From: an uncultured Acidimicrobiia bacterium
GTDB lineage: Bacteria > Actinomycetota > Acidimicrobiia > Acidimicrobiales > JACDCH01
Length of the DNA: 64,000 bases
NCBI GenBank assembly: GCA_963721305.1
Contig: CAVRIR010000002.1
Location: 420,067-484,066, forward strand
Reading direction: 5' to 3'
Within the stretch, counting starts at the first letter, position 1, and each line of letters starts with the position of its first letter. The translations under genes were made by a program, and so were the position numbers. The notes under the pieces were generated by a model. It saw only the letters and a list, made by a program, of their open reading frames with translations, was not told the origin of the DNA and made no database searches. Shown piece by piece: positions 13,479 through 45,140 of the stretch.

Positions 13479-13567
13479 GCCCGAACCGTAGCTGTGGGAG
13501 CCCGAAGCGACGGCCGGTGCGCCCCTTCCCCGACGGGCGACCGAACGCCGCTCCGGACTCGTGCGGC

Positions 13568-13596
13568 ACTCTAGATCGAGGATGCATGAAATGCAA
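13568..13596 (-). promoter_or_regulatory. Sigma-70/HrdB-type promoter upstream of the proC leader
   Basis: TTGCAT-N17-TAGAGT on the minus strand in an AT-rich patch. Confidence 0.65.
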
Positions 13597-13636
13597 TGAG
13601 ATCTACTGATGCGGGTCTCGACGCCGAGCGGGCGGG

Positions 13637-14098
13637 TCAGCCGTTGAAGCGCGAGGCGAAACCGATGCGAAGCGCGGGACGGAAGAACTGCTCGACCCAG
13701 GCGTAGAGCGAACCGAGGATGCGATCGAGCTCGTCGTCGTCGACGGCGTCGTTGCCGAGCTGGCCGAGCAGGAACACCGCGTCCTCCTCGCCGATGGCGA
13801 ACGCGGCGCCGTACAGCTTCAGGTTCCGCCGAAGGAGGTGCTCGTAGAACTGCTCGTGGTTCTCCTCCGGCGCGGGCATCACGTAGGTCTCGTAGTGCAG
13901 GGTCCGCTGGCCGAGTGTGAGCCAGATCGTGAAGGTGTCCTTCTGCTCGCCCTTGACCCGGATGAACCAGCGGCGGACCTCCGGCTCGCGATCAACGGCA
14001 GCGATGACAGGGTTCTCGAGTCGTTGGCGCTCGGCCCACGCGTCGATGCGAGCCGCAAGCTCTTCGAGCTCGTCGTCCGTGAACGGACGATCGCTCAC
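13637..14098 (-). CDS. YbjN-domain protein (Rv0487-like)
   Basis: YVMPAPEENH..YEHLLRRN; typical partner downstream of mshA. Confidence 0.85.
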   Translation of the reverse strand: MSDRPFTDDELEELAARIDAWAERQRLENPVIAAVDREPEVRRWFIRVKGEQKDTFTIWLTLGQRTLHYETYVMPAPEENHEQFYEHLLRRNLKLYGAAFAIGEEDAVFLLGQLGNDAVDDDELDRILGSLYAWVEQFFRPALRIGFASRFNG

Positions 14099-14099
14099 G

Positions 14100-14366
14100 G
14101 TGTTCCTTCGGGGGCTGCGCCCCCGGACCCCATCACGTCCGGCTCCCTGGCGGTCGCACGGCCGCCGTGAGCTCGCCTCGCTCGCTCAGTGCTGCCTCGG
14201 GGGCTACGCCCCCGGACCCCATCACGTCCGGCTCCCTGGCGGTCGCACGGCCGCCGTGAGCTCGCCTCGCTCGCTCAGTGCTGCCTCGGGGGCTGCGCCC
14301 CCGGACCCCATCACGTCCGGCTCCCTGGCGGTCGCACGGCCGCCGTGAGCTCGCCTCGCTCGCTCA
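14100..14366 (-). repeat. 3 x 89-bp tandem repeat (MIRU/VNTR-like) containing a GGGGGCTGCGCCCCC hairpin
   Basis: Near-identical units with period 89; fills the mshA-ybjN spacer. Confidence 0.95.
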
Positions 14367-15584
14367 CGCGGTGCAGTCGACGGGTTGCCGCACGGTGAGG
14401 TCCGCGTACAGCCGTCGCAACCGCGCCGCAGTCGTCGACCACGTGTACCCGCGCGCTCGGGCCGCGGCGGCGGCGCCCATGCGTTGCGCGCGCGCCGGAT
14501 CCGAGAGCAACGCATCGACCGCGCTCGCGAAGACCTCCGGCTGCCGGCCCTCGACGAGATAGCCGGTCTCGCCGTCGTCGACGAGCGTGCGCAGTCCTCC
14601 GACCGCGGCTGCGACGACCGGCGTGCCGCACGCGCCGGCTTCGAGCGCGACGAGTCCGAAGGATTCCGAGCGGCTGGGCACGATGCAGAGATCCGCGGCG
14701 CGGTAGTAGGTCGCGAGCAGCTGGTGCGGCTGGGGCGAGACCCATCGGATGCGCTCGGCCACACCGAGCTCGTCGGCCAGAAGCTCGGCCTTCGCCGCTT
14801 CCGCGTGCCCGTCGGCACCGCTCGGTCCGCCCACGACGACCAGCTGCGCATCCCGGCGGCGAAGCTCGGCCAGCGCGCCGATGGCGACGTCGAGACCCTT
14901 CAGCGGCTGGATCCGTCCGACGAACAGCAGCATCGGTGAGCCGTCGAGGCCGTAACCCAACGCCTTGCGCGCGCCGAAGCGGTCGCCGGGAGAGAAGAAC
15001 GCGTGGATCACACCGGGGGGCACGAGCTGGATGCGATCGGAGGGCGCGCCGTAGAGCGCGATGAGCTGCTGCGCCTCTGCGACGCATGACGCGGTGATGG
15101 CGTCGGAGCAATCCATCACCGCGTGCTCGGCCTGCACACGTCGCTCGGGTTCGGCATCGCCGGTCTCGGCTTTCACGCGCGCCAGCGTGTGGAACGTCGA
15201 GACGAGCGGTACGTCCAGCTCGTGCTTCAACCGGTGGCCGGCGACACCCGACAGCCAGTAGTTCGCATGGATGGCGTCGACGTCACCGATCGCGTGCAGC
15301 GCGTCGAGCACACCGTCGGTGAACTCGTCCACCAGCTCGGGCAACCGCTCCTTCACGACGTCGTGCCGCCCGGCGTCGATGTGCACGACGCGAAAGCCAG
15401 GCTCGACGTCGACGATGTCGGGGAGGTCGGCGCGCCATCGTCTGGTGAACACGCTGCACTCCACACCCGCCTGCGCCAGCGACGACACGAGTTCGCGGAC
15501 GTAGACGTTCATGCCCCCGCTGTCACCGGTGCCGGGCTGAGCGAGGGGAGAGGTGTGCAGGGAGAGGACGGCGAGCGAGCGCAC
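14364..15584 (-). CDS. mshA: D-inositol-3-phosphate glycosyltransferase (mycothiol synthesis)
   Basis: HTSPLAQPGTGDSGGMNVYV, FVGRIQPLKG, SESFGLVALEA. Confidence 0.9.
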   Translation of the reverse strand: MRSLAVLSLHTSPLAQPGTGDSGGMNVYVRELVSSLAQAGVECSVFTRRWRADLPDIVDVEPGFRVVHIDAGRHDVVKERLPELVDEFTDGVLDALHAIGDVDAIHANYWLSGVAGHRLKHELDVPLVSTFHTLARVKAETGDAEPERRVQAEHAVMDCSDAITASCVAEAQQLIALYGAPSDRIQLVPPGVIHAFFSPGDRFGARKALGYGLDGSPMLLFVGRIQPLKGLDVAIGALAELRRRDAQLVVVGGPSGADGHAEAAKAELLADELGVAERIRWVSPQPHQLLATYYRAADLCIVPSRSESFGLVALEAGACGTPVVAAAVGGLRTLVDDGETGYLVEGRQPEVFASAVDALLSDPARAQRMGAAAAARARGYTWSTTAARLRRLYADLTVRQPVDCTA

Positions 15585-44644: not shown

Positions 44645-45091
44645 ATGCCAGCTGATCTCGATGCGGTCCGCAGGCTCGGCGCTGCGGATCATGGTCTCGT
44701 CGTCGTGTCGGTGGCGCGACCCGACGGCTCGGTGAACACGTCAGTCGTGAACGCGGGAGTGCTGCCCGATCCTGTGACTGGTGAAGACGTCGTCGGGTTC
44801 GTGGCGCGTGGCGACGCCCGCAAGCTCGACTACGTCAGAACGACTCGGCGCGCGACCGTGACGTTCCGCTCGGGTTGGCAGTGGGTCGCGGTCGAGGGTC
44901 CGGCACGCCTCGCGGGACCGGACGACGACCTACCCGGCCTGTCGCCTGACCGGATCCCGGCACTGTTGCGCGACGTGTTCATAGCCGCCGGCGGCACCCA
45001 CCATGACTGGGACGAGTACGACCGCGTCATGGCCGCGGAGCGCCGCACCGCCGTCCTCGTCTCCAATGTTGGATGGAAACGGGCGCGATAG
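44645..45091 (+). CDS. PPOX-class F420-dependent oxidoreductase
   Basis: SVVNAG, WQWVAVEG, AAGGTHHDWDEYDRVM. Confidence 0.88.
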   Translation: MPADLDAVRRLGAADHGLVVVSVARPDGSVNTSVVNAGVLPDPVTGEDVVGFVARGDARKLDYVRTTRRATVTFRSGWQWVAVEGPARLAGPDDDLPGLSPDRIPALLRDVFIAAGGTHHDWDEYDRVMAAERRTAVLVSNVGWKRAR

Positions 45092-45112
45092 CGCCCGTTT
45101 CCATCCAACATT
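45065..45112. repeat. Perfect 22-bp inverted repeat hairpin
   Basis: AATGTTGGATGGAAACGGGCGC-GATA-GCGCCCGTTTCCATCCAACATT. Confidence 0.9.
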
Positions 45113-45140
45113 CGTTGTTCTCGGAGTCAACTTTCGGGAA

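Follow-up and report, generated by a model that had tools for sequence, protein, structure and literature searches.

The 269 nt between an mshA-like gene and a ybjN-like gene in an uncultured Acidimicrobiia bacterium are filled, from the first GTGA to the last, by a tandem array that we interpret as three units of a small, non-autonomous mobile element. The element resembles the interspersed repetitive units of mycobacteria (MIRUs), and its built-in relay of short overlapping open reading frames (mini-ORFs) would let ribosomes pass on to the downstream gene. We put the probability of this reading at about 0.72. The array lies in a 64,000-nt stretch of DNA, which we call the window (G000:C2:420067-484066), in a genome (G000) of 4.31 Mb in 6 contigs, with 67.6% G+C and 96.68% completeness.

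Tandem Repeats Finder placed the repeat at 14108-14366 of the window, with a period of 89, 2.9 copies, 98% matches, 0 indels and a score of 511, while all other arrays in the window scored 71 or less. The original prediction, made from the letters of the window, had described an 89-bp tandem repeat here and four minus-strand mini-ORFs linked by GTGA and TGATG joints; all of its relay coordinates proved exact when the minus strand was read, and the repeat period was the same. In order along the minus strand, the features are as follows.

14364..15584, minus strand: gene for an MshA-like GT4 glycosyltransferase of 406 aa; mini-ORF 1 has its GTG in an overlap with the TGA stop (14366-14364)
14108..14366, minus strand: tandem array, 2.9 units of 89 bp (Tandem Repeats Finder; nhmmer and covariance-model matches at G000:C2:434158-434438)
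14311..14367, minus strand: mini-ORF 1, 18 codons, VSERGELTAAVRPPGSRT; GTG at 14367 in a GTGA overlap with the mshA-like stop (sequence, relay trace)
14222..14314, minus strand: mini-ORF 2, 30 codons from the GTG at 14314 or 29 from the ATG at 14311; GTGATG joint; TGA stop at 14224-14222
14133..14225, minus strand: mini-ORF 3, 30 codons from GTG or 29 from ATG; one base differs from mini-ORF 2
14095..14136, minus strand: mini-ORF 4, with 13 codons if read from GTG and 12 if read from ATG; the YbjN-like GTG start overlaps its TGA stop (14097-14095)
13637..14098, minus strand: YbjN-like gene, 153 aa; GTG start at 14098 in a GTGA overlap with mini-ORF 4

The chain therefore has overlaps at both ends and at every internal joint. 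The internal joints are all GTGATG, which combines a GTG in a 4-nt overlap with an ATG in a 1-nt overlap, so both starts are present and in the same frame; counted from the ATG, the minus-strand mini-ORFs run 14311-14222, 14222-14133 and 14133-14095. The ORF list of the window includes 14133..14225 (30 aa from GTG), 13637..14098 and 14364..15584. Mini-ORFs 2 and 3 differ by a single base change (A to V in the peptide) located in the loop of hairpin H3, described below. A direct repeat marks the two ends of the array, reading CACCGCGTGAGCGA next to mshA and ACACCGTGAGCGA next to ybjN. A pattern scan of the array found no promoter-like or terminator-like sites, and no Rfam family matched in 13500-15000 at E up to 1.

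Copies of the element are dispersed through the genome. Iterated nhmmer searches found 17 element loci in G000 and a covariance model found 16 (21 matches), giving a union of 18. Two further arrays share the 89-bp period, with three identical units at C3:924284 and two at C5:176095. The main check proposed in the original prediction was whether other copies sit at GTGA or ATGA junctions, and they do: 13 of the 17 nhmmer loci share the orientation of the downstream gene, at 9 of them overlaps at both ends bridge two genes, and the remaining four enter the downstream gene by overlap or in-frame fusion.

Overlaps at both ends: C2:319423, the mshA-ybjN locus, C3:149572, C3:193911, C3:924284, C4:82457, C5:176095, C5:998307 and C6:241674
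C5:962830: start 1 nt past the upstream stop; ATGA at the 3' end
C5:344426: start 10 nt past the upstream stop; GTGA at the 3' end
C3:127329: no same-strand upstream gene; the N-terminus of the gene comes from a partial second unit
C5:968066: runs in frame into the gene

Two of these loci illustrate how the element can become coding. At C3:127329 (L148), the partial second unit makes up the first ~13 codons of a 424-aa ORF, and at C5:968066 (L145) the in-frame fusion of an entire unit adds 30 residues at the N-terminus.

We compared relays at co-directional junctions with gaps of 24-300 nt, using a crude gene model from third-position G+C. We found all-overlap relays at 7 of the 13 junctions with the element and at 54 of the 1435 without it (Fisher p = 2.3e-7). 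A relay alone is thus not rare, given those 54 element-free cases, and its tie to the repeat family is far beyond chance. According to Pfam matches for 20 ORFs, the flanking pairs are classical operon partners, namely ribosomal proteins L14 and L24, SecD and SecF, ATP synthase b and delta, PhoH and YbeY, two pairs of ABC ATPases, GalT and its neighbour, a polysaccharide deacetylase and a GT4 glycosyltransferase, and a histidine phosphatase and DUF3090. The interrupted operons include rplN-rplX, secD-secF and atpF-atpH, and the element is tolerated ahead of usually essential genes.

Comparison with related genomes showed the same junctions both with and without the element. The mshA and ybjN genes were adjacent in 20 of 20 related loci, and the element was absent from this junction in all four congeners (G001-G004), which had one plain GTGA overlap and three spacers of 10-16 nt; the locus count is thus 3 units versus 0 in 4 congeners. 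A more distant relative (G005) carried a 46-nt insert there that resembles the element's left half. For six other G000 loci, the same congeners served for comparison. The site at C4:82457 was empty in all three congeners in which the locus was found (ATGA, ATGA and GTGA), that at C6:241674 in both (ATGA in each), and that at C5:962830 in all four, where spacers or TGATG were present. At C3:924284, there were three units in G000, one in G003 and empty ATGA junctions in G001 and G004, with G002 differing. At C5:176095, G000 had two identical units, G002 had two diverged units, and G001, G003 and G004 had none; in G001 and G004 the GTGA overlap was clear. Inserts of 19-35 nt were all that the four congeners contained at C5:998307, with flanking direct repeats in G001 and G003. 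The junction at C3:149572 lacked homology in G001 and G003, and no counterpart of it was found in G002 and G004.

Empty sites in the congeners read ACATGA, ACGTGA, GAATGA and CGATGA, and filled sites had RTGA (ATGA or GTGA) at both ends, often within a direct repeat 5-14 nt long. The empty and filled sites, together with the direct repeats, indicate that the element has been gained and lost at start codons, and the empty RTGA junctions at the same places in relatives further bear out the predicted insertion at GTGA and ATGA. Unit number varied between species at the same locus in two cases (3/1/0 and 2/2/0). The variable number tandem repeat proposed in the original prediction shows as a difference between species at these two other loci, and not as variation within populations or at mshA-ybjN itself.

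Some of these loci showed further peculiarities. The histidine phosphatase-DUF3090 junction (C5:998307; L177-L180) carried a different short insert in each of five species of the genus, with those of G001 and G003 being ~24 nt long with direct repeats of about 10-11 nt, and this junction looks like a hot spot of insertion and partial deletion. About 33 nt past the array at C5:176095 (L143), the downstream gene has an extra base 11 codons in, which shifts its frame relative to the homologous G002 gene reading MSERVVVRAPGRVNL; this is either an assembly error or a broken gene. In G001 and G004 (L002, L003), the mshA frame stops about 108 nt early and homologous sequence goes on, which suggests frameshifts in those assemblies. 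One Logan contig had an odd 76-nt skip within mshA.

Each unit contains three hairpins, which are listed here by their copies in the mshA-ybjN array.

H1, 14345..14367, 14256-14278 and 14167-14189, minus strand: in the first copy a GTGAGC/GCTCAC stem around GAGCGAGGCGA, which includes the start codon
H2, 14314..14343, 14225-14254 and 14136-14165, minus strand: symmetric GA/GA internal loops
H3, 14287..14303, 14198-14214 (loop GTA) and 14109-14125, minus strand: CGGGGGC-GCA-GCCCCCG (repeat search, folds)

The structure was examined in an alignment of 61 distinct copies, one of them from the mshA-ybjN array, five taken at other loci of G000 and the remainder from other metagenome-assembled genomes (MAGs), with a consensus from RNAalifold. 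Paired cells amounted to 95.2%, compared with 84.3% when partners were shuffled (reached in 0 of 500 shuffles) and 32-45% when the pairing was slid by 1-3 columns, figures that are somewhat overstated because the sequences are related and the structure came from the same alignment. Double-sided changes occurred in 11 of 20 pairs (3 of the 4 pairs of H1 and 8 of the 9 of H2); since the MAG copies were collected through H3, that hairpin had no room to vary. H1 closes around a constant GAGCG(A/C)AGCGA and contains the mini-ORF start. In its arms, pairing at the first three positions beside the loop motif was 0.83, 0.86 and 0.65, versus 0.67, 0.55 and 0.41 after shuffling, with the palindrome CATG giving part of this excess, and in 34 of 69 instances the stem was contiguous for only 0-2 pairs. 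We considered that the 5' arm of H1 may be target DNA, with a 3' arm made to match at insertion. All inverted repeats in the three copies examined were local hairpins, and terminal inverted repeats were found in none of the three.

Each unit has one copy of the hairpin quoted in the original prediction, the reverse complement of GGGGGCGCAGCCCCC. The description of this hairpin as resembling repetitive extragenic palindromic (REP) sequences fits a G+C-rich hairpin and goes no further, as the unit is an ORF-bearing module of three hairpins and the genome has no Y1 transposase of the REP-associated tyrosine transposase (RAYT) type. We also observed that CCGGAC and GTCCGG can pair around the GTGATG joint (14212-14231, and in each other unit), placing both starts in an 8-nt loop, as an alternative to the outer parts of H2 and H3.

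Past H3 lies a purine-rich tract resembling a Shine-Dalgarno (SD) sequence, which is GAGG in the inner units and GAAGGAAC ahead of the ybjN-like GTG. Gene models for the other MAGs were crude, and their loci are not mutually independent. With these limits, an SD-like motif followed H3 at 50 of 110 loci in other MAGs, compared with 18% of random 16-mers, and the start codon most often lay 8 or 13-14 nt past H3. Eighty of the 110 loci had a sense-strand downstream gene, and in 46 of these 80 a start within 40 nt of H3 overlapped a stop. An extension of H3 pairs with part of the SD-like tract and the bases before the start in three of six folded copies, which might fit, weakly, the RNA-unfolding model of translational coupling.

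The lengths of the repeats also follow the arithmetic of the relay. Among 32 locus-by-period cases, array periods were 3n-1 in 20, 3n in 9 and 3n+1 in 3 (p = 7e-4, with loci not independent), and periods elsewhere spanned 70-152 nt. Since a unit has 3n-1 bases, slippage or unequal recombination can change the number of units and leave the chain unbroken.

The mshA-ybjN array departs from other copies in the position of its joint. Canonical copies have one 30-codon ORF that spans the copy from its left RTGA to its right RTGA. Compared with its nearest relatives (e.g. L100), the mshA-ybjN array has lost one base between H2 and H3 (ACGCGGATGG to ACGTGATGG) and gained one at the unit boundary (ATGAGC to ACTGAGC), such that the period is still 89. 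The stop/start joint is thereby shifted from the unit boundary to the GTGATG in the middle of the unit, both halves of the unit keep their usual frames, and the former start is an in-frame CTG. The relay at mshA-ybjN is a circular permutation of the usual one. Either change, left uncompensated, would have shifted the reading frame of the chain. The 1-nt deletion that created GTGATG also took away the 3' partner of the outermost pair of H2.

These patterns suggest how the element could persist within operons. It would insert at the start codon of a gene, typically at an RTGA stop/start overlap within an operon, and three of its parts would spare translation of the downstream gene: an open mini-ORF that starts on the upstream stop, an SD-like tract past the last hairpin, and a stop that overlaps the downstream start. 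At mshA-ybjN, ribosomes ending mshA would most likely re-initiate on mini-ORFs 1, 2, 3 and 4 and then on ybjN, melting three hairpins per unit en route. The relay fits both the termination-reinitiation and the RNA-unfolding models of coupling. Some ribosomes are probably lost at each extra joint, and the array would therefore attenuate ybjN at most mildly. Judged from the sequence, the mini-ORFs are predicted to be translated and coupled, and any effect of copy number would follow from that; the avoidance of polarity and the tuning of expression by copy number raised in the original prediction would be possible further consequences. Direct repeats of variable length that span RTGAGCGA hint at movement based on microhomology.

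A bolder version of this mechanism appears decidedly unlikely to us. It would have widespread, transposase-less hairpin modules home to NTGA overlaps by an undescribed mechanism at the DNA level, with arrays acting as reversible "translational resistors". Homing could proceed by template switching or hairpin-primed repair at microhomologies spanning RTGAGCGA, and with each added 3n-1 unit a constant share of re-initiation would be lost. The two conserved loops are triloops of the form C-GNA-G (H1 has GCGAAGC or GCGCAGC, H3 has GCGCAGC), a motif that is unusually stable in single-stranded DNA. If this version were true, expansion and contraction of arrays would set protein ratios in mshA-ybjN, secD-secF and atpF-atpH.

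Several observations weigh against a working relay of three mobile units. Folding z-scores were unremarkable (-1.57 for the array, -0.48 for one unit and 0.06 to -3.67 for five other copies), and with such weak thermodynamic support the case for structure rests on covariation. The ybjN-like gene has an SD-like tract of its own and could therefore be translated without coupling. There was no sense-strand downstream gene at 30 of the 110 loci in other MAGs, and by a crude test 34 of the 80 sense loci had no overlapping start within 40 nt; in G000, 3 of 17 loci are antisense to their neighbours without a relay and 1 is ambiguous. All-overlap relays also occur at 3.8% of element-free junctions. 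A permissive relay tracer, which allowed TTG starts, left the coding of the last ORF unchecked and was replaced by stricter versions, called relays "complete" at 34 of 95 loci when read forward, against 17 when the same 95 were read as reverse complements. Because the units of an array are copies, the chain is not independent evidence unit by unit. Logan contigs at the mshA-ybjN array were 151-249 nt long at a depth of 2-4, with none crossing the array, so the copy number of three rests on the assembly.

The same observations feed the other explanations we weighed. It is unlikely, in our view, that the array is a neutral passenger, that is, selfish DNA in which the relay is mere inherited geometry, translation of ybjN relies on an SD-like site of its own, and mini-ORFs and copy number are irrelevant to the cell. 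Such an account draws on the SD-like tract ahead of the ybjN GTG, on the chance relays, on congeners without the element at mshA-ybjN and on near-identical units, which mean that the array may be recent. It is harder to reconcile with open frames, 3n-1 lengths and overlaps at both ends that are kept though sequence, period (81-119 nt) and frame vary, with a -1 change offset by a +1 change that left the chain at mshA-ybjN intact, or with insertions tolerated ahead of rplX, secF and atpH. We consider it very unlikely that the main role is instead at the RNA level, as in REP sequences, with hairpins that shield mshA mRNA from 3' exonucleases or provide a processing site, so that the products of the two genes reach unequal amounts, and with secondary ORFs. 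Three hairpins per unit, the compensatory changes that keep H1 and H2, and an excess of sense-strand G-U cells (23) over A-C/C-A cells (14), a weak hint of RNA structure, would suit that role. Yet placement follows start codons rather than the 3' ends of genes, an RNA stabilizer needs neither orientation bias nor frame arithmetic, and, if the relay works, the hairpins lie within translated frames where ribosomes melt them.

That an assembly artefact made three units out of a single inserted one is highly improbable, even with no read or contig across the array. Unit 2 carries a private base change, which is rare in collapsed or expanded repeats, arrays with an 89-bp period occur at two other G000 loci and in other assemblies, and contigs from other runs reproduce the outer junctions (14033-14183 with 0 differences and 14345-14593 with 1). 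We find it hardly credible that functional small peptides are what the mini-ORFs encode. Their frames are open, with start codons, and most G000 copies use one frame, giving peptides like MSERSELMAAERPPGSRTPMGSGGAAPEE. Across MAGs, however, each of the three frames of the core is used (at 29, 11 and 6 loci), and it is therefore not the peptide that is conserved; peptides vary freely while DNA and hairpins are conserved, and the mshA-ybjN array breaks the usual peptide at a different point. We therefore retain the reading of a MIRU-like mobile element with a built-in relay.

An exact 25-nt core of the element was present in at least 116 stretches of GTDB species genomes. Among the 80 core matches listed, 56 were titled Acidimicrobiia, Acidimicrobiales, Acidimicrobiaceae or Ilumatobacteraceae, and the other 24 had higher-rank or unspecific names, with no other class named. 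In sampled Actinomycetota, BLAST gave 4 marginal matches in 300 genomes and the covariance model gave weak matches in 4 of 150, of which one (G111) was given no weight. Loci in two genomes (G153, G083) share the H3 core and a left hairpin of the ATGAGCGAAGC type, which indicates that a related subfamily exists outside Acidimicrobiia. Exact core matches in viral contigs numbered 0, leaving carriage by phages unsupported. Literature searches, which did not cover supplements, found no description of such elements in Acidimicrobiia.

The proteins encoded on either side of the array were assigned by homology. The mshA-like protein matched Pfam Glycos_transf_1 (7.1e-41) and GT4 N-terminal domains, and its best NCBIfam match was TIGR03449 mycothiol_MshA (419.8 bits, residues 2-404 of 406), which is under the curated cut-off of 462.5. 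The YbjN-like protein matched PF10722 YbjN in Pfam (3e-9, 37.6 bits) and had no NCBIfam match.

Other repeats were noted in the same genome. The three antisense copies (G000:C2:214158-214228, C5:759112-759185 and C6:613250-613328; L149-L151) form a rearranged subfamily in which the H1 loop motif lies between ATGGGG and H3, and which is antisense between co-directional genes. A second dispersed repeat of ~48 nt has the hairpin GAAACGGGCGC-TAT-GGCGCCCGTTTC (e.g. 45065-45114 of the window, G000:C2:465131-465180). It is far commoner, with about 140 BLAST matches in G000 (one copy as query, E up to 1e-4), and is intergenic in both orientations, with four copies within all-overlap relays. At G000:C3:377398-377488, two tandem units of ~45 nt, which have a GGGGCCGCAGGCCCC hairpin and again a C-GCA-G loop, make up a mini-ORF of 31 codons that has GTGA at each end; they may represent a shorter relative of the element family.

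To our knowledge, MIRUs have been treated as a mycobacterial peculiarity, and their way of moving is unknown. A MIRU-like design is now present in a distant, uncultured soil lineage, with many filled and empty sites, several array lengths and a defined anatomy, and it points to a general way for selfish DNA to live in operons without polar damage. The family is also a large natural data set on how start codons are found and on the efficiency of serial termination-reinitiation. In practical terms, MAG annotation acquires spurious small ORFs, N-terminal extensions and wrong start codons from the repeats, which could also serve as strain markers in Acidimicrobiia.

The element shares features with several known classes of short repeats. 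Bacterial MITEs (miniature transposable elements with inverted repeats), of which Correia/NEMIS, RUP and ERIC are examples, are likewise small, non-autonomous, flanked by short direct repeats and often co-transcribed with their neighbours. The Acidimicrobiia element differs from them in the absence of terminal inverted repeats (three of three copies), in its target, an RTGA at a start codon, and in its tandem arrays and frame-preserving design. REP sequences and bacterial interspersed mosaic elements (BIMEs) are also short, G+C-rich hairpins dispersed between genes of one transcript, and a role in mRNA fate is possible in both cases. In contrast to these, the Acidimicrobiia unit is about 90 nt long, has three hairpins and an ORF, sits on start codons with an orientation bias, and forms arrays that are head-to-tail, not alternating. 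Searches for Y1_Tnp (PF01797) gave 0 matches in G000 at its 96.68% completeness, and the same search matched 6 of 14 control genomes; with no Y1 transposase gene in the genome, we rejected mobilization by IS200/IS605 or RAYT transposases.

The closest likeness is to MIRUs (Supply et al. 1997), as two reviews describe them (PMC12548453, PMC3184786). As described there, MIRUs are repeats of 40-100 bp at 40-50 loci inside polycistronic operons, with ORFs that overlap the neighbouring genes and tetranucleotide direct repeats at sites filled in M. tuberculosis and empty in M. leprae (PMC3184786), and they insert at start codons with a 4-nt overlap, termed -4 nt spacing (PMC12548453); overlaps of 4 nt and 1 nt are common spacings in translational coupling (PMC12548453, PMC3184786). 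The stop/start-overlap logic that the original prediction attributed to MIRUs is thus described in both reviews. Its term "independent MIRU-like" is apt for the host, an Acidimicrobiia lineage and not Mycobacterium, with the likeness judged by the published description of MIRUs. The Acidimicrobiia element differs in its defined three-hairpin module with an SD-like tail, and the mshA-ybjN array differs in having its stop/start joint inside the unit. With its 89-bp unit and tens-of-loci scale, the element otherwise matches the described MIRUs in size and number, in its intergenic position within operons, in ORF ends that overlap the neighbouring stop and start by 4 nt, and in having tetranucleotide direct repeats where a site is filled, with empty counterparts in relatives. 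Both also have internal G+C-rich inverted repeats and form tandem arrays, with copy numbers that, for the Acidimicrobiia element, differ between species at two loci.

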